Below, in pieces: positions 4,616-63,830 of a stretch of 64,000 bases of DNA. A model generated the notes under the pieces. The model had not been told where the DNA came from and ran no database searches. It saw only the letters and a program-made list of their open reading frames with translations. Within the stretch, counting starts at the first letter, position 1; every line of letters begins with the position of its first letter. The translations under genes and the position numbers were made by a program. The stretch comes from a phage. Where the stretch lies: the NCBI GenBank assembly GCA_018093385.1, contig GCA_018093385.1_4808.1. One strand, written 5' to 3'.

Positions 4616-4792
4616 ATTACCTCCGGTTTTGAGTTAATATGATTATAACGCAGACTTTCAGAAAGGCAAACTTTTTGTGAATTTTAATCAAAAAAATGGC
4701 CAGAAAAAATCTGGCCGAAAGATCACCCTTTATCCACTACTAAGCTGGAATCATAATTTTACTTGATATAGCTTGTACAAGCAAACTATAAT

Positions 4793-53485: not shown

Positions 53486-55156
53486 ATGTCAATTAATAAT
53501 GACAATCTTCCAGAGGATACAGGTGATGAATTTGGTGCAATCTTTGACGAAATTCAAGATGCAGGCGTTTCGGAAGAAATGCAGGCAGCAGAGCAGCAAG
53601 GCACCAGAGCTAAAATCAGCCTTCAACATAAAGCTGTTGAAAAAGATTCAGAGCGCATGGAATGCTACGGTGAAGAAGACTTGGTTGAAAGAGCACGCTT
53701 GCTCGCCTCACTTCAGGTAATCAAGTTCCCTCACTACAAGCCTACCAAAGATGACTTCGTTCTACAGGCAGACCGGACGAGTGACATGAACCGTTATGCG
53801 GTGTTCGACGCGTTGTTTGATAAGGGAAGTGGCGTCGTTCCATTCCCTCACAAAGATACTTTTCGTGGGCGCTTAGTCGACCATCGCGGCGAAACATTCA
53901 CCGACCGTACTTTGGAAGTCACAGAGATAGTTGCCGCTGTCGACGCAGCAGGATTGTCCAACCCAAACTCACGTCAGGTCGCTCAATCCTATAAGGAATG
54001 GGCCATGCGTTATCAGCGCGACGACCTGATGGACTTCTTCTACAAGAAGCTGCCTGAATGGGACGGTACTGCGCGCATCGAGAAATACCTTATCGAGCTA
54101 TTCCGACCGTTCGATACAGAGTTAAACCGACAAATCGGTGTGTATTTTTGGCTATCGCTCTACAACCGCCTGACCAACCCTGGCTGTCAAGCGCCAATCT
54201 CCATCGCGCTCATCGGCGGCCAGAATGCAGGGAAGAGTTATTTTAGCAAGCTGCTTTGCGAAGCTATTATGAACGACCGCCACGCAACACCGATTCCGTT
54301 GAACTTAGCCGCGCAAAACTTCAACCCGTTCTTGCGAGCTATTACGGGTCGCTCAATTATCGCGAACGTTGGCGAGATGACAGGCTTTAAAAAGGCCGAC
54401 ATCGAAAACATGAAAGCATTCCTGACTAAGACGGAAGATGACCTGGACTTCAAATTTGAAGATACGCAGGTTAAACCACGCCAGTGGATTGCTATCATGG
54501 ACGGCAACGAATACGCAGGCATGCAGCGTGATGACACGGGCAACCGTCGTGTGTACCCTATCTTTGTTGGCCAACTCGCCGACAAGGACGGGCAACCGAA
54601 CTGGTCGAAAGATTTCCAAGCTGACCTTTCCACTTTGAAAGAAGACGTTTGGCAGTTGATGGCTGAGTGCGCTGCATGGATGGAGAAGCACGGCGAAGCA
54701 GGTTACAATGCATTTGTTGGTGAAACATCTCGCATGCTTACTGAGTTTAGTAAGAACGAAATGGAACGTGCGCGCGGCGTTATTCGTGATGAGATGGTGG
54801 ACAACGACCTTGTTGAAGTCGTCATCACCGCGCCTTATGACCGACATCACAGCGGACGCTGGCACATCACCAGTGGTGCTATTGCTATGGGATTCAGAGC
54901 GAAGTGTGGCAAGTCGCCTTTCTCTCGTACCCTTGCGCCGCACATGTCGAAGCTTGGTTTTGAGCCTGCAACCTATCGCAACCAGCGCGGGTACTTTACG
55001 CCGCTGATTAAGAATGAAGCAGGAGAATACATTTCTGATTTGATGACCATCTTAGCGTATCTTATCCGCGATGAGTCTGACCCTGAAGATATTGAATTCT
55101 TGAAGAAGGTTATTGAGCGTAAACGTTCTTTGGGAAGAGATAAGGATGAATTCTGA
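53486..55156 (+). CDS. P-loop NTPase, VirE/primase-associated helicase-like
   Basis: Walker A GGQNAGKS; 556 aa; location next to primase-like gene. Confidence 0.5.
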   Translation: MSINNDNLPEDTGDEFGAIFDEIQDAGVSEEMQAAEQQGTRAKISLQHKAVEKDSERMECYGEEDLVERARLLASLQVIKFPHYKPTKDDFVLQADRTSDMNRYAVFDALFDKGSGVVPFPHKDTFRGRLVDHRGETFTDRTLEVTEIVAAVDAAGLSNPNSRQVAQSYKEWAMRYQRDDLMDFFYKKLPEWDGTARIEKYLIELFRPFDTELNRQIGVYFWLSLYNRLTNPGCQAPISIALIGGQNAGKSYFSKLLCEAIMNDRHATPIPLNLAAQNFNPFLRAITGRSIIANVGEMTGFKKADIENMKAFLTKTEDDLDFKFEDTQVKPRQWIAIMDGNEYAGMQRDDTGNRRVYPIFVGQLADKDGQPNWSKDFQADLSTLKEDVWQLMAECAAWMEKHGEAGYNAFVGETSRMLTEFSKNEMERARGVIRDEMVDNDLVEVVITAPYDRHHSGRWHITSGAIAMGFRAKCGKSPFSRTLAPHMSKLGFEPATYRNQRGYFTPLIKNEAGEYISDLMTILAYLIRDESDPEDIEFLKKVIERKRSLGRDKDEF

Positions 55157-56900: not shown

Positions 56901-57395
56901 ATGATCATCCATCGCCCTTTAATGTTAAAGAAAGAAGAAGCTAAAGAAATTTTACACGCATTGAGACGTGCAGAAGCAGATGTTAAACTTCGCGTAAAGG
57001 TAAGAGGCTTCATTATGAAGCAGTTCGAAAGTGATGATGTTGACTATGCCATTGATGAATTGCTGAAGCGCAACGTCAAGGGTGCAACAAGACCTATTTA
57101 CCATCAATCTCGTTGCGTACAAGCTCCTATCAAGACTTATGTTGATAAAAAGCCGCGCCTTAAGCCTGTTCCGGCTGATAAAATAGAAGTCGGTGATGTT
57201 ATCGTCTGCGTCTATTACGGCAGTCAGATTTTCAATGCTGTTGTAGTAAGACGATACAGTATAAACGGCTGCCAATACATGGAAGTGACAAACGCAAAGA
57301 AAGAACCTGGCAGCTTGAACGTGGCTTACGCATTAAGGGAATTCAACAGTCCTTCTTGCACTCTTTATAAGGTACTCGACCATGGCTCATGTTAA
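56901..57395 (+). CDS. hypothetical protein
   Basis: ORF in track, RBS AGAGGT. Confidence 0.45.
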   Translation: MIIHRPLMLKKEEAKEILHALRRAEADVKLRVKVRGFIMKQFESDDVDYAIDELLKRNVKGATRPIYHQSRCVQAPIKTYVDKKPRLKPVPADKIEVGDVIVCVYYGSQIFNAVVVRRYSINGCQYMEVTNAKKEPGSLNVAYALREFNSPSCTLYKVLDHGSC

Positions 57396-58294: not shown

Positions 58295-58300
58295 ATATCA

Positions 58301-58333
58301 AAAAGGTGAGCTAAATGCTTGCCTTTTCTTTTA
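58301..58333 (+). terminator. rho-independent terminator (copy 1 of repeated cassette)
   Basis: AAGGUGAGC-UAAAU-GCUUGCCUU hairpin (two G-U pairs) plus U-run. Confidence 0.5.
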
Positions 58334-58379
58334 TCAATACTTATACTCTTTTCATCAAGACTAACAAGTGAGGTGAATT

Positions 58380-58697
58380 ATGATTTACTTAGGAATGGAC
58401 GAGGGTGCTTACAAAGACCTTTCAAGGGTGCCAAACGTTAAGTTGGACACAGCTGTACACATCAAGCCTTGGCCAATCGCCCACCCAGACGTTGTTGTCC
58501 CAGTCGCTCCTGGCACGCGTTACGTGGCCATTGATGACGACGGAGTCATTCACTGTTATTCGGAAAAACCAAAGTATATAGAGCAATATCACGGTTGGTT
58601 TTTGGACGAGCGTGCAATGGCGCGTTACTGCGGCGAAGTCGGTCTGGAAGGCTGGAGCTTCGAGGCTAGTGAATCGTGTGTCGAGGTGCAATTATGA
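58380..58697 (+). CDS. hypothetical protein (paralog of 62176-62667 N-terminal region)
   Basis: VAIDDDGVIHCYSEKPKYIEQYHGWFLDE vs VARDSNGSIWVYEEKPAWEERRGQWLYE. Confidence 0.45.
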   Translation: MIYLGMDEGAYKDLSRVPNVKLDTAVHIKPWPIAHPDVVVPVAPGTRYVAIDDDGVIHCYSEKPKYIEQYHGWFLDERAMARYCGEVGLEGWSFEASESCVEVQL

Positions 58698-58912
58698 ACG
58701 CCGCGCTGGGTAAGTTGCCATTCAATAAGCGTAATGAGTTGCGCATGGTATCGCGCTTTCAACAAACGCATTTATCACTAATCAAGATTGCAAACAAGGC
58801 ATACTCTCTAAATTGTCCTGAAGAAGAATGGAAAGAATTGAATGAGCGTCGTAAACAATTACAACATGCTGCATTCAAGCTGCAGCAATATGCTATGGAG
58901 TATGCAAAATGA
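58694..58912 (+). CDS. hypothetical protein
   Basis: ATG 58694 inside longer track ORF. Confidence 0.4.
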   Translation: MNAALGKLPFNKRNELRMVSRFQQTHLSLIKIANKAYSLNCPEEEWKELNERRKQLQHAAFKLQQYAMEYAK

Positions 58913-59193
58913 AGATGCAAAGATGTCCCCATTGCTTGTCCACGATGCGGCTTACTGCTGAAGAATATTTACATCACGTTAACGTTTGTGATGCTAATCC
59001 TGAAAACTCGACACGTTACTATTATCATTATCATGCGGAAGCAGAAGACGGCTCAGGCGCAACAGGCATCGTCACTACGAAAGAAATGGTGATCACAAAA
59101 AAGGCGTATGAAAGCCTGCTGGATACAATCAAGGAAGTGTCTGGCAAAGAAATAGTCTGCATTAAATCTTTATCTTTCTTGCACGAGGTGTGA
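58909..59193 (+). CDS. small Cys/His zinc-finger-like protein (paralog A1)
   Basis: MKMQRCPHCLSTMRL...HHVNVCDANPENS. Confidence 0.45.
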   Translation: MKMQRCPHCLSTMRLTAEEYLHHVNVCDANPENSTRYYYHYHAEAEDGSGATGIVTTKEMVITKKAYESLLDTIKEVSGKEIVCIKSLSFLHEV

Positions 59194-59194
59194 A

Positions 59195-59578
59195 ATGAGA
59201 ATGAAGCGTTGCCCTTACTGCCACGATGTGATGCACCTTCCACACGAAGAGTTTGTGCAGCACATGACTAACTGTGATAAGAATCCTAATAGCGAAAGCC
59301 AACTTGAAGAAAGAATGTTCTTGGTGTCATTCAAAGCTTCTGCTTATGAAGTGCAACGTTCTTACGGCGCACCAAGTACGATTTACTGTCCAACAACATT
59401 GAGAAGCGACATCGACTCAATTCAGCTTGCGGCTTGGATTAACGTTAAGGAAGGAATCACGCCGCACTTTATTGCGCGCATCCAATCTCAGATTCTACAA
59501 ATCAAGCGCGAATACAACCGTGACATCACTGAAGTGAAGGTGTTGTCTATCACACCGATGAATAAGGAGTTGCCGTGA
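59195..59578 (+). CDS. small Cys/His zinc-finger-like protein (paralog A2)
   Basis: MRMKRCPYCHDVMHL...QHMTNCDKNPNSES, tandem to A1. Confidence 0.45.
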   Translation: MRMKRCPYCHDVMHLPHEEFVQHMTNCDKNPNSESQLEERMFLVSFKASAYEVQRSYGAPSTIYCPTTLRSDIDSIQLAAWINVKEGITPHFIARIQSQILQIKREYNRDITEVKVLSITPMNKELP

Positions 59579-59835
59579 ACAAGGGTCCGATGACTAAGTT
59601 AGCCGTTGCCGCGCGGAAGCTTCGACAAGCCGTTAATGGGTCGCGGCCCGTGGTGTTAACACTCGACGACGCAAAGGCACTGGTAGAGCTACTCGACGAG
59701 CACAACCGACGCAAGAATCTGGAGAACACATTACGCTGGCGCGTTACTCCGAAAGGGCGGGAGAGCGAAAAGAAAGCTTACTTGCGGCGCAAACTAAGGT
59801 CGGTCGGCCTTCACGAAGAGGCGAAGAATATTTAA
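59575..59835 (+). CDS. hypothetical basic protein
   Basis: ORF in track, probable GTG start. Confidence 0.4.
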   Translation: MNKGPMTKLAVAARKLRQAVNGSRPVVLTLDDAKALVELLDEHNRRKNLENTLRWRVTPKGRESEKKAYLRRKLRSVGLHEEAKNI

Positions 59836-59839
59836 TTCA

Positions 59840-59873
59840 AAAAGGTGAGCTAAATGCTTGCCTTTTTATTTGC
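59840..59873 (+). terminator. rho-independent terminator (copy 2 of repeated cassette)
   Basis: 30-bp identity with 58301-58330 including hairpin and U-run. Confidence 0.5.
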
Positions 59874-59907
59874 CTGCATTATACTTAGTTCATCAAGCAA
59901 AGGAGAA

Positions 59908-60216
59908 ATGATTATGAGTTACGACGAAAGGTTTGGCAGAAGCGGATTATTTCATGACGCTGTACACAAAGACAGCAAAGATGTTGTCTGCGCATTCAAG
60001 GTTGATTCTTACGGTACGCTGAAACCTTTTAAGGTCGGCGAAACATACAAGCTGTTTCACGGCTGGTTGACGCGTCGCAACAACTTGCCTGACATGGAAG
60101 TCTGGTGGATAGAATACAAGGGTCAGGCTCATCGGTGCAAGGTTGTAGAGGTGCGCGGCGTGAACTACTATCAATCTGTTATCAGCGGATTTGTTTTTAA
60201 AGAGGGTGAGCTATGA
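59908..60216 (+). CDS. hypothetical protein (KVGETYKLF family)
   Basis: RBS AAGGAG; shares FKVG-x-TY-x-L motif with 61439-61780; start may be ATG 59914. Confidence 0.45.
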   Translation: MIMSYDERFGRSGLFHDAVHKDSKDVVCAFKVDSYGTLKPFKVGETYKLFHGWLTRRNNLPDMEVWWIEYKGQAHRCKVVEVRGVNYYQSVISGFVFKEGEL

Positions 60217-60518
60217 GTACCGAAGCAATGAAGAAAAAGATTTTGAACACTTTGCAAGAAGCCGTGAACTGTGGTGCCATTAAAGAGTTCAAGGAGACTC
60301 AAGAAGGCGGTGAGCCAGTATTCTTCTTTAAGAATAAAAAGGACGGTGTAGCGGCAATCATGCTATTAAAGAATAGTGATGATACATTTATTCTTTGCGT
60401 CGGCGGTTACGACCTTGTCGCTGATGATGCATTCATCACTTGTGCCGACGGCCTTAATCCTATGTTGGCATTTGAGCGTCGCGCCATCCGTGTTGCAACG
60501 TTTGGAGGGAATTTATGA
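60213..60518 (+). CDS. hypothetical protein
   Basis: RBS AGAGGGTGA; N-terminus similar to 60930 gene. Confidence 0.45.
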   Translation: MSTEAMKKKILNTLQEAVNCGAIKEFKETQEGGEPVFFFKNKKDGVAAIMLLKNSDDTFILCVGGYDLVADDAFITCADGLNPMLAFERRAIRVATFGGNL

Positions 60519-60700
60519 GTACCGAAGTCCATAACGCTTCAGCAATGGTAAGCTTTTACCGTAACAAAGGCGTGTCTCTCGTTAAAACGCCGCAAGGCAT
60601 GCTGTTCTTTGGCACGCGCTTCCTTAAGGCTTCGGAGCGTGAAACGCTGTCCAAGTTTGACCAGAAAACATTACATGCAGTTTGGAGAAGACAGCAATGA
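60515..60700 (+). CDS. hypothetical protein (61 aa)
   Basis: RBS GGAGGG. Confidence 0.4.
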   Translation: MSTEVHNASAMVSFYRNKGVSLVKTPQGMLFFGTRFLKASERETLSKFDQKTLHAVWRRQQ

Positions 60701-60933
60701 CATCCAACCTTAAAGCCCGTTTATTATTCATCAAGCCGCATGTGCCGTATAAGATTAGTAAGCGCACCTGGCTTAACATTTACAACCGCAGCGGCGACCG
60801 TTGTTTGTACAAGGCGAAGCGACGCAAGAAGGTATATTTAAAGGCTGTGATGTCGCAACCCGTCGATGCATTCAACATCGGCGAAAATGAACTGTCAATC
60901 GGCTATCAAATTGAACTCGGAGTAAAGAAATGA
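60697..60933 (+). CDS. hypothetical basic protein
   Basis: ATGA overlap with upstream stop. Confidence 0.4.
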   Translation: MTSNLKARLLFIKPHVPYKISKRTWLNIYNRSGDRCLYKAKRRKKVYLKAVMSQPVDAFNIGENELSIGYQIELGVKK

Positions 60934-61439
60934 AAATCGAACAACTCGAAGCAGTATTGGAAATGGCTGTAAAGGCAGGCGCAATCAGAAGCTATAGCCG
61001 CGAGAAGTCTGATGATGCTGCACACTTTTGTCGCAACTTCTATATTGTCGGCAACCTTAACGACCACTACACCATCGAGTGGTATACTAATATGATGACG
61101 CTTAAGTCGCGCACCATGGAGCTTTGGTTTGATGACGTTTGCCTTTCTCATAGCCACCCGTGCTACGACGTTGCGCTTGGATTCTTTTACAAAAGCAACC
61201 AACCAATCGCCCACATCGGTGAGAAGCATGAGCATTTGAAGGATAAACAAAAGACTGCTGACGGTTGGATTGATTGGGATGGTGGAGACTTGAATCCAGT
61301 CCCAGGTAAGAAGGTGCTTTACGTGCTGCGCGACGGCGCTACAGCAACAAAGCCGATTGCATCAGATGAATTGCGCTGGGAGAAGATTGAACGCCACCGC
61401 GATGGCGATGTCATCAAATACAAAGTCGTGGAGGAATAA
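60930..61439 (+). CDS. hypothetical protein with C-terminal GGD-NPVPG domain
   Basis: C-terminus WDGGDLNPVPGKKVLYVLRDG paralogous to 62664 gene C-terminus. Confidence 0.45.
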   Translation: MKIEQLEAVLEMAVKAGAIRSYSREKSDDAAHFCRNFYIVGNLNDHYTIEWYTNMMTLKSRTMELWFDDVCLSHSHPCYDVALGFFYKSNQPIAHIGEKHEHLKDKQKTADGWIDWDGGDLNPVPGKKVLYVLRDGATATKPIASDELRWEKIERHRDGDVIKYKVVEE

Positions 61440-61780
61440 TGGAAGAGCAAGAAGGCCGTGAGCTAACGTTCGACGAGCAGATGCAAGAGCTTCAGCGCAC
61501 ATCGCCGCTGCACGGTAAGATTGTTGACATAGAGGCGAGCGAATCCAACCTCACCCAATGGCGGCTCAAGTGCACCAGCACAAGCAAAGAGCTTTCAAGC
61601 TTCAAAGTCGGTCAGACCTATTTGCTTTATGAGGCAAAAGGACTTATTATTGATGGAAGGCAAATTGTCTTCACGGTAGTCAGCGGAATGCGTTGGTTTG
61701 TGAAGCGTGATGTCGAGGGCCGTGACATGTTTGTCGCAGGCTTTCCAGAAACAAGATTCCAATTGGAGAAGGTTAAATGA
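61439..61780 (+). CDS. hypothetical protein (KVGQTYLLY family)
   Basis: Motif shared with 59908 gene. Confidence 0.45.
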   Translation: MEEQEGRELTFDEQMQELQRTSPLHGKIVDIEASESNLTQWRLKCTSTSKELSSFKVGQTYLLYEAKGLIIDGRQIVFTVVSGMRWFVKRDVEGRDMFVAGFPETRFQLEKVK

Positions 61781-62118
61781 ATCAACATAAAGAACGTTTA
61801 GAAGAACTGGTGCGCGGTGAGCTTTACGGCGGCGATGACTCACTGTTCAAGTTAAGCGATGCGGTTGTCAACGAGTACATTCACGGGCTGGTCGACGCGC
61901 AAGGTCGTTTTCCTTATCCGCGAGACTATTGCAACGACATCACAGCAGCGTGGCCCGTGATGCTTGCTAATGATGTCAGCGTCGTGCGAAACTGCGGCAA
62001 CAAAGAACCGAACTGTGACTACTCGGCTTACGTCGCGTTGGACGGCATGGACATTGCATCATTTAAGTGCAGCGGCAATCACGACAACCCGTTGCGCCGC
62101 GATGCACGTAATCATTAA
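61777..62118 (+). CDS. hypothetical Cys-containing protein
   Basis: ORF in track. Confidence 0.45.
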   Translation: MNQHKERLEELVRGELYGGDDSLFKLSDAVVNEYIHGLVDAQGRFPYPRDYCNDITAAWPVMLANDVSVVRNCGNKEPNCDYSAYVALDGMDIASFKCSGNHDNPLRRDARNH

Positions 62119-62175
62119 GCTGCACGCCAACAAAGGCGAAGGCTCAGTGGCAACCGTTTATGAGAAGGTGACAGC

Positions 62176-62667
62176 ATGACTAACAAAACGCAACGCATCA
62201 ATTTTGAAGGAAAAGAATACAAAATAGACGTTCGTGCACGATTCGTTGCGCGCGATTCCAATGGCAGCATCTGGGTGTATGAAGAGAAGCCTGCATGGGA
62301 AGAACGGCGCGGCCAGTGGTTGTACGAAACCTGTGGTTCAGTTTGGTGCGAGCGCATCGACCAAGTGAAGACGTTTGAAAAGAACAGACCAGCATCACGC
62401 GATTCATTGAAGGAAGTGGCAGAAATCAAAATCCAGGACCCAACGCCGTCGACCGATAAACAATACGCAGTCGGGCAACGTGACATCGAGCAACTCGACG
62501 AGGGCGGCTATTATACGCGCCACATCTATGCCATGACTCATGAAGGACTTTACAGCAAGTCGGACATCGCCGCTGAATTAGCCCATCGTGACTTGCAACT
62601 TGACTTGCTTAAGATAGAAATCCAAAACTTACGCAACACCATTTTAAATACCTGGAGCTTAAAATGA
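62176..62667 (+). CDS. hypothetical protein
   Basis: RBS AAGGTGA; N-terminal region paralogous to 58380 gene. Confidence 0.45.
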   Translation: MTNKTQRINFEGKEYKIDVRARFVARDSNGSIWVYEEKPAWEERRGQWLYETCGSVWCERIDQVKTFEKNRPASRDSLKEVAEIKIQDPTPSTDKQYAVGQRDIEQLDEGGYYTRHIYAMTHEGLYSKSDIAAELAHRDLQLDLLKIEIQNLRNTILNTWSLK

Positions 62668-63089
62668 TACAACGTTACGACCTGACATATGATGTGGTAT
62701 CAGAAGATTGCTCCATCACTCCCGTTCCAGAGAGTCATGAAGGACGTTTTGTTGCATATGAGGACTATGAATCATTGCTCAAACTTAATGAGTCGCTAAC
62801 AAAAGAGATTGAGCAATACTGCGAGCGCATCAAAGCCGCTGAAGATGTTATCAAGCTTTTTAGCGAGGCTGTCGATAAATACAAGGAGTGCAACGTACCG
62901 ATTAAGGAGGAAGCGTGGACCGTGTGGCTTGGCGGCGATAATCCGGTGCCTGGTGAGATTGTTGAATACAAGCTGCGCAATGGAGGTGATAAAGTACTGT
63001 CGAGACTTTCTGACCATCTTCACTGGGGTCATATAGGAGCACTCAAAGGCAGCGACATTATTGCTTATCGGGTTGCTAAGGAGGGGTGA
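62664..63089 (+). CDS. hypothetical protein with C-terminal GGD-NPVPG domain
   Basis: WLGGDNPVPGEIVEYKLRNG. Confidence 0.45.
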   Translation: MIQRYDLTYDVVSEDCSITPVPESHEGRFVAYEDYESLLKLNESLTKEIEQYCERIKAAEDVIKLFSEAVDKYKECNVPIKEEAWTVWLGGDNPVPGEIVEYKLRNGGDKVLSRLSDHLHWGHIGALKGSDIIAYRVAKEG

Positions 63090-63538
63090 TGGGCAAACGG
63101 CTTATCGCCGCTGGTTGGGCCATACCGAAGTGGGGCCATCGTGCGCATTACTTTGACGAAGGAGAAGTGCAAAGCCTTTGCGGTCGCGCAACGTATTTCG
63201 GTGATGAGCGCGTCAGCGGCGATTATATCGACTCGCTTTTAGGCAAAGGTGATTGCAAGAAGTGCCAGAATATATTAAGGGATATTCTCACGCAAAAAGG
63301 ATTGCTTGAGCTTGATGAATCGGAAGAAGTAATTGAGCTTAAGCTGGAAGCCAATCACCTTATTAATATGTTCAAGAACTATTACGCAACTAATATGCGA
63401 TCAAAGATGCGTAAGAAAGTAATAGAAGAGGTACTTACTTACAATCCGTTAAGGATGAATAAAACTAAATTGAAGAAATTTAACATAATGGTAAGGAAAG
63501 AATTTAAAAGGCTAGGAGTGAAGAATTTTATATTTTAA
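63086..63538 (+). CDS. hypothetical protein
   Basis: ORF in track, probable GTG start; last gene before noncoding region. Confidence 0.4.
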   Translation: MMGKRLIAAGWAIPKWGHRAHYFDEGEVQSLCGRATYFGDERVSGDYIDSLLGKGDCKKCQNILRDILTQKGLLELDESEEVIELKLEANHLINMFKNYYATNMRSKMRKKVIEEVLTYNPLRMNKTKLKKFNIMVRKEFKRLGVKNFIF

Positions 63539-63554
63539 TAGTGATTAATGTTAA

Positions 63555-63580
63555 GAGGGCCGAATGGCCCTTTTGTTTGC
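63555..63580 (+). terminator. rho-independent terminator
   Basis: GGGCC-GAAT-GGCCC hairpin followed by TTTTGTTTG. Confidence 0.65.
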
Positions 63581-63599
63581 CTGTTGTTTGTGAGGCTTT

Positions 63600-63830
63600 A
63601 TTATCGGATAAAGCGATTGATTTGTGTAAATCTATTAGAGGGTCGTGGGCAGTGAGTATTGTGACGTGAATTTTGTGTCTTGAATATGTGTGCGAATCTG
63701 GAAGATTATTGTACTGTGGTGCTGTGGGATTGGAGAGGGAATCACTAGGAATTGGAGCGTGTACCGTGGTGTGTGGTCCTGTAGGCTGCGCCGTCTATGG
63801 GATTGCCGCTTGAAATTAAAAAGGAGATAT
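63600..63830. other. noncoding G+T-rich, C-depleted tract
   Basis: Long stretch dominated by GTG/TGT/TGG words with very few C on plus strand; no ORF. Confidence 0.4.

Follow-up and report, generated by a model that had tools for sequence, protein, structure and literature searches.

Tightly packed small genes that follow the primase gene of a Wifcevirus appear to form a plastic accessory block of module chimeras

Small phage genes that carry the same short motif raise the question of whether whole genes have been duplicated, whether parts of genes have been exchanged, or whether the likeness is fortuitous. In this work, we focused on such a locus, positions 58380-63089 of a phage DNA stretch of 64,000 nt (contig GCA_018093385.1_4808.1 of assembly GCA_018093385.1), the whole of which is called the window below; genes are designated by their first position. 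An initial annotation had recognized at least four paralog families among small early genes, i.e. a Cys/His zinc-finger-like N-terminus (58909 and 59195; A), a D-G-I-x-Y-x-EKP-W family (58380 and 62176; B), an FKVG-x-TY-x-L family (59908 and 61439; C) and a C-terminal GGD-NPVPG domain (60930 and 62664; D), and had considered their repeated duplication and diversification typical of host-takeover or anti-defence repertoires. The reading that we consider probable is that the locus lies within a plastic accessory block encoding chimeras of small modules, with putative host-directed roles. We hold the structural and evolutionary part of this reading with high confidence; its functional part is tentative and, on balance, more doubtful than secure.

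Judged by DNA comparison, the window is the DNA of a Wifcevirus, an Escherichia coli myovirus. Segment 58000-63600 is 85-97 % identical to the genomes of TH35, Bas98-101, FEC19, WFC and ECML-117, all of them ~68 kb E. coli/Shigella myoviruses, and every gene under the match is annotated in these genomes as 'hypothetical protein'. Wifceviruses are under-studied, distant relatives of Pbunavirus and are reported to replicate unusually fast and to have considerable restriction resistance in E. coli K-12 (PMC11990801); this paper, which describes the BASEL collection, contains nothing on the present gene block. A train of ~22 small genes starts just 3' of the DNA primase gene (53486-55156), on the same (plus) strand, and runs to 63538, most of its genes having 4-nt start/stop overlaps; positions 58380-63089 are inside it, and all the features of the locus described below are on the plus strand. 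A terminal repeat of ~3.7 kb is known in WFC (PMC6563267), and the end of the train, when mapped onto the WFC record, falls ~0.6 kb before the right terminal repeat. We propose that this tightly packed train, bounded by the primase gene on one side and by the right terminal repeat on the other, constitutes the plastic accessory block of the Wifcevirus genome. Scans of the window for Rfam families and transfer RNA genes gave no match.

Orthologous proteins were taken from the window and 11 related GenBank loci (L001-L011), which were used for comparison instead of the 4 loci yielded by an IMG/VR locus search. Word-based homologue searches with 62664, 62176 and 58380 recovered hardly anything but Wifcevirus orthologs. 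All eight open reading frames (ORFs) and the four motifs are present at the positions given by the initial annotation. The pairs were assessed (i) by BLASTP against all 478 ORFs of the window; (ii) by comparing their Smith-Waterman scores with those of 2000 shuffles; and (iii) by hhalign among the ortholog alignments of 22 genes, i.e. all 231 pairs, with column-shuffled alignments as an additional reference (300 shuffles for the FKVG pair). Pairs A, B and D were significant in the BLASTP, shuffle and hhalign tests; in the all-against-all alignment, which the initial annotation had put forward as a check, only the FKVG pair did not reach significance pairwise. The families are also mutually unrelated, as had been proposed, cross-family hhalign scores being at noise level. 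Searches of the window with hidden Markov models returned exactly two members each for A, B and D. In these three pairs, similarity is confined to one module, the remainder of each protein being unrelated even when profiles are compared with hhalign. Three of the four families are thus statistically solid at the sequence level, as shared modules and not as whole-gene paralogs; the appearance of paralog families arises because each module occurs twice on unrelated partners. Proteins of the block would accordingly be viewed as chimeras in which the small, independently folding modules A, B and D each sit twice on unrelated partners.

The two D proteins illustrate this architecture. D1 (60930..61439; 169 aa) is composed of an N-terminal domain (residues 1-104, phrog_21861) and a D module at residues 109-169 (61254-61436). 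D2 (62664..63089; 141 aa) starts with a variable N-module, continues with a coiled-coil helix that spans residues 33-76 (62760-62891) and ends with a D module at residues 83-141 (62910-63086). They are 42 % identical over their C-terminal 59 aa (BLASTP E=2e-9; shuffle p~7e-11; hhalign E=5e-22), and both match phrog_9174, phrog_11995, phrog_16943 and phrog_26870, four families in common that give the pair independent support. The module itself is Trp-rich, ~58 aa long, with the signature W-x2-W-x-GG-x-NPVPG ... W ... AYRVV.

Module B is found in B1 (58380..58697; 105 aa), at about residues 45-104, with a predicted all-beta fold of seven strands (AlphaFold2 model with a predicted local distance difference test score, pLDDT, of 70 and a predicted template modelling score of 0.63). 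Its second copy occupies residues ~16-93 (62221-62454) of B2 (62176..62667), a 163-aa fusion that continues with a phrog_34533 module at residues 93-163 (62452-62664). The pair shares 37 % identity over 41 aa (BLASTP E=0.004; shuffle p~1e-5; hhalign E=2.8e-6), and multiple alignment widens the module to ~60 residues, with a common C-terminal S-x-[ED]-S-x2-EV motif. Independent support comes from the PHROG matches shared by 58380 and 62176, i.e. phrog_1972 (E=1.5e-17 and 2.1e-12, respectively) and phrog_11307 (E=1.8e-3 and 4.8e-6). Homologues of B occur in Queuovirinae, and numerous small phage proteins gave fold matches to B. A further likeness links the C-terminal half of 62176 (62452-62664, phrog_34533) with the N-terminal part of the endolysin that this phage encodes (32702-33346, phrog_181), at 38 % identity over 45 aa, E=6e-6 pairwise and 0.003 window-wide; this likeness could be a captured fragment or a chance helical similarity.

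Module A forms the N-termini of A1 (58909..59193; 94 aa; residues 1-36 = 58909-59016) and A2 (59195..59578; 127 aa; module at 59195-59302), whose C-terminus is unrelated to that of A1. Over residues 1-36, identity is 42 % (BLASTP E=2e-8; Smith-Waterman score of 98, the shuffles reaching 56 at most, p~1e-9; hhalign E=1.4e-10). Residues C6, C9, H23 and C27, spaced as C-x2-C-x13-H-x3-C, do not vary in any A1 or A2 ortholog, and all these orthologs also keep a hydrophobic M/V13 and F/Y20 (M13 in all but one A2). No Pfam zinc-finger model matched A at E<=1 (DUF7501 matched at E=0.0056, below the cut-off of that model), and nothing significant was obtained with PDB sequence profiles (E>=0.17; nearest 0.2-0.4). 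Among these non-significant matches (E=0.2-0.4), the Gn-tail fingers of Crimean-Congo haemorrhagic fever virus (2l7x) and the C2HC fingers of CEP104 (5lpi) align with A ligand for ligand, and the hydrophobic residues of A stand at the usual core positions of CCHC beta-beta-alpha fingers. Unlike the fingers of these two proteins, A stands alone, as one finger at the very N-terminus of a small protein of a phage. From its invariant ligands and conserved core positions, A is a predicted CCHC zinc finger of beta-beta-alpha type, a tentative match by pattern.

The initial annotation had favoured repeated duplication, i.e. whole genes duplicated in place and diverging until one motif-bearing segment is left recognizable. 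Exactly two copies of each module per genome would fit such a process, and the A genes fit it best: they are adjacent, in the same orientation, with the same 36-residue start, and A1 is found in only 5/11 relatives (A2 in all of them), as expected of a lineage-specific tandem duplicate. The A1/A2 pair thus looks like a local tandem duplication, and it is the only pair that does. As a general account duplication is unlikely, since no residual similarity between partners is found outside the modules, even with profiles, since B and D are on hundreds of unrelated partners in unrelated phages, and since modules attach to and detach from their partners within the genus. The two D copies of the window, moreover, have only short DNA strings in common and are for that reason regarded as old; the repeats are too short for a recent duplication. 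What recurs is therefore not the small protein but a module of 36-60 aa on unrelated partners. Because of the breadth of B and D across unrelated phages, the acquisition of module-bearing genes or domain shuffling explains these two pairs at least as well as duplication.

A block of chimeras is also what the comparison of relatives argues for. The 62176 gene has its B module in 3/11 relatives; in 7/11, only the C-terminal half is present, as a gene of 72-130 aa. Orthologs of 60930 are devoid of the D module in L007 and L008. In those of 62664, the N-module is one of three alternatives, the coiled coil may carry insertions, and the D module is single or double. Besides A1, gene presence varies for C1 (59908; 6/11), 60515 (4/11) and 61777 (4/11). 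Among genomes of the same ~68 kb size, ortholog identity ranges from 100 % down to 26-36 %, and 62664 is among the genes whose alleles are only 26-40 % identical in otherwise collinear genomes. This range of identities (26-100 %), together with presence/absence and swapped alleles, bears out the fast diversification that the initial annotation had attributed to these genes.

Two observations accompany these patterns. Within a set of 62664 orthologs that includes P0040, P0062, P0087, P0091, P0048, P0053, P0086 and P0092, some have a coiled-coil insertion of 50-66 aa, whereas in others the D module is doubled in tandem, the two copies belonging to different allele classes. Diverged alleles in the collinear genomes (L001-L011) were also seen for the flanking genes 56901 (56901-57395; 39-95 % identity) and 63086 (63086-63538, phrog_2358; 26-97 %), which points to allelic replacement across the whole block.

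A recombination junction can be located in ECML-117, whose segment 3404-4700 (L005) follows the window over 60697-61331 and then jumps to 62909-63689. At the junction, ~70 nt belong to both matches and lie in the conserved 5' portion of the D module, which indicates recombination between the two paralogous D modules. As read from this alignment, ECML-117 has lost ~1.6 kb: the N-domain of 60930 is fused to a 62664-type module, and 61439, 61777, 62176 and the front of 62664 are deleted. The comparisons show the modules to be reshuffled by homologous and illegitimate recombination, both between co-circulating relatives and between paralogous copies; modules are in this way dropped, swapped between loci, tandemly duplicated or fused, and D-D recombination can delete the intervening genes.

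The fourth family, C, is where the possibility of chance has to be weighed. C1 (59908..60216; 102 aa) carries FKVGETYKL, is found in 6/11 relatives and has distant homologues in Kagunavirus; C2 (61439..61780; 113 aa) carries FKVGQTYLL and is restricted to Wifcevirus, where it is 90-98 % conserved. Their likeness comes down to a 13-residue motif, for which 7/2000 shuffles score as high (p~0.003). The pair was not seen at E<1 by BLAST against the ORFs of the window, and a first hhalign comparison (E=3e-3 over 16 columns) was not significant after 231 tests. When either protein was used as a query in tblastn (50,697 phage records, E<=1), the locus of the other was not recovered in any of 25-27 phage records. 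Chance or convergent short motifs among many small ORFs would fit this pair only; A, B and D clear all the tests with a margin of many orders of magnitude, and B and D have PHROG support as well.

Even C improves when distant homologues are added. Kagunavirus homologues of 59908 have 36-39 % identity to it, and the motif is kept once they are included (FKIGRKYWLHHGW). The enriched 59908 profile matches 61439 over 41 columns (probability 41 %, E=2.8e-4) with a score of 27.2, against a mean of 10.8 and a maximum of 19.2 for the column-shuffled null (0/300) and 17.2 for the next-best real family; 61439 is its best match among 21 families. The FKVG family of the initial annotation is accordingly sustained by the enriched profile and not by the pairwise tests, and homology of 59908 and 61439 is tentative. 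For the four families taken together, chance is a very improbable explanation. In Kagunavirus CR01 (L013 295-576) and 22664BS2 (L014 187-576), the 59908 homologues lie between the genes of a head protein and of a '62 kDa structural protein', on the strand opposite to both neighbours; these homologues are moron-like inserts in a late region, not members of an early block.

A fifth family, of which the initial annotation makes no mention, may be formed by the 60213 product (60213..60518; 101 aa) and the N-domain of 60930 (60930-61241, phrog_21861). The 60213 protein aligns with residues 1-99 of 60930 over 85 collinear columns (hhalign E=6.5e-4; score of 26.9 against a shuffled maximum of 20.1); the single-sequence test is weak (p=0.036 with shuffles), and the homology is tentative. 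If true, 60930 is a 60213-like domain fused to a D module.

The block also contains a repeated element between its genes. Cassette copy 1 (58296..58350) consists of a hairpin (58301-58327) followed by a T-run, the 3' arm of the hairpin overlapping a -35 TTGCCT, and of a -10 TATACT. Copy 2 (59836..59888) has the same design, with hairpin and T-run, TTGCCT and TATACT, and the two copies contain a direct repeat of 33 nt that is 94 % identical (second copy at 59839). Each of the intergenic gaps, 58295-58379 and 59836-59907, contains one of them and with it a promoter-like motif. A third element (63556..63604) ends the train with a GGGCC-GAAT-GGCCC-TTTT hairpin that overlaps a promoter-like site, TTGCCT-N16-TATTAT. 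The pattern TTGCCT-N16/17-TATWMT occurs 5 times in the window for 0.1 expected, the remaining two TTGCCT-type sites being at 4642 (minus strand) and 11739 (plus strand). These motifs suggest transcription by the host polymerase in at least two units, 58380-59835 and 59908-63538, so that the repeated terminator-promoter cassette would split the block into at least two transcription units. An alternative ORF start at 59854 (MLAFLFACIILSSSSKGE...) was rejected, as it reads the promoter cassette as protein; in relatives, the first 24 'codons' from this position are conserved ahead of genes that differ from one another. The true start codon is at 59908 or 59914, and the position 59908 of the initial annotation was correct.

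To assess the distribution of module D beyond Wifcevirus, a profile built from 12 module alleles was used in an exhaustive search of 1.84 billion cluster representatives. The family comprises 2,539 representatives at E<=1e-3 and 191 at E<=1e-10, and the signature W-x2-W-x-GG-x2-PV ... W ... DI-x-AYR is kept in the consensus of 143 distant homologues. Among the top matches, the module is present in 1, 2, 3 or 4 tandem copies in 53, 70, 14 and 6 proteins, respectively, at either protein end or alone, and 109/148 partner segments are singletons. By tblastn, D was found in 138 GenBank phage records of many genera, including phages of Klebsiella, Escherichia, Pseudomonas, Sinorhizobium and Burkholderia, with all the proteins annotated as hypothetical. 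Neither Pfam nor NCBIfam has a model for the module, and the look-up of cluster members of the distant D-module proteins gave no informative names.

Within Wifcevirus, the module is unevenly conserved: in 79 unique modules, the flanks have an entropy of ~0.5 bits and the central 28 residues one of 1.57 bits, i.e. they are ~3x more variable, and the central alleles fall into six discrete classes. The AlphaFold2 model of 62664 has its coiled-coil helix (residues 33-76) at pLDDT >90 and a small beta module at pLDDT ~70 with three clear strands. A Foldseek search of the PDB with this model gave no match, and the D2 alignment gave nothing significant with PDB sequence profiles. An SH3/Tudor-like fold, for which a five-stranded barrel superposable on known structures would be expected, was considered for D; only the three clear strands are seen in the model, and two distant members match Tudor_Coilin weakly, below the cut-off.

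The Pfam domains found as partners among the top D-module proteins are dGTP_diPhyd_N (6 proteins), DUF3310 (5), DUF6378 (4) and dATP-dGTP_PPHyd (1), with D modules flanking dGTP_diPhyd_N and preceding DUF3310. The last of these is the SaV-like domain, named after an early-transcribed, host-toxic lactococcal phage protein, SaV, that determines sensitivity to AbiV (PMC8306868). Distant D-family members are thus fused to SaV-like domains and to phage dATP/dGTP diphosphohydrolases (PF11753, PF18909, PF04447); unlike them, 60930 and 62664 carry neither type of domain according to Pfam, their partners being the phrog_21861 domain for the former and a coiled coil with a variable N-module for the latter.

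These fusions to dATP/dGTP diphosphohydrolase-type domains, which recur in the family, are one reason to ask whether the block instead serves DNA metabolism or replication of the phage itself by supplying accessory factors, e.g. regulators or adaptors of nucleotide-pool enzymes and of the replisome. The block lies in the replication half of the genome and has the transcription direction of the primase gene, and CCHC fingers typically bind nucleic acids or proteins. Conservation is the rule for core replication factors, however, and the block genes are among the most variable and dispensable of the genus; the Pfam scan detected no nucleotide-hydrolase domain in the window proteins themselves, and only roughly a tenth of the top D-module proteins have such fusions. 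We regard this explanation as improbable.

A host-directed early role of the chimeras is plausible in view of the type of their promoters, their position and dispensability, the diversity of their alleles and the domains to which D is fused elsewhere. Early expression itself is inferred from the sigma-70-like promoters, the strand shared with the primase gene and the position by the terminal repeat. The modules may act as binding or adaptor domains by which variable partners are tethered, early in infection, to targets of the host or of the phage; the candidate target-contacting surface of D would be its hypervariable centre. The proteins would then be dispensable, strain-specific accessory factors for host takeover, counter-defence or manipulation of nucleotide pools, not for core functions. 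A more specific proposal for D, possible but rather doubtful, is that it would be an undescribed, very widespread ligand-binding repeat of phages, with its hypervariable centre as a swappable specificity cassette that aims early effectors at variable host targets, e.g. defence components, the module being used singly, as tandem copies, on coiled-coil stalks or in fusion with SaV-like or deoxynucleotide-hydrolase domains.

Several points count against this picture. The 22 block proteins, compared with Pfam, NCBIfam and PHROGs, matched no family of known function, only families of unknown function or nothing, no dedicated anti-defence library being used. The promoters are consensus-type matches only, and a generic promoter scan showed no enrichment (21 found for 21.2 expected). 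The quality of the structure models is moderate (pLDDT ~70). Relaxed constraint together with recombination, and not an arms race, could account for the high variability. Finally, the FKVG and 60213/60930 pairs are both tentative, and the C1 family, with its Kagunavirus homologues among head and structural genes, is not tied to an early region.

Similar regions have been recognized in virulent phages, such as the 'plastic periphery' of the T4 superfamily and counter-defence gene regions, where small packed ORFs of unknown function lie between conserved genes, with presence/absence and allele variation among close relatives and host-type promoters. Unlike what is described there, it is sub-gene modules (36-60 aa) that recur here, and their gain, loss, swap and fusion can be traced in 12 genomes. 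The design of 62664, i.e. variable N-module, coiled coil, C-terminal globular module and mosaic alleles, is like that of the modular coiled-coil proteins of the lambda Ea22 / P22 Ead type; 62664 gave no match to Pfam Ead_Ea22 at E<=1 and no Pfam match at all. Ea22-like and MazG-like assignments of window proteins were dropped, as no match was found.

Mosaic accessory genes are a well-known phenomenon, and the general significance of the present case is modest. For Wifcevirus, the analysis provides a module map of accessory genes that are so far unannotated, with their autonomous units, variable segments and recombination sites. Its most promising lead is module D, which is abundant among proteobacterial phages and has relatives fused to domains of the early toxic (SaV-like) and nucleotide-pool types.

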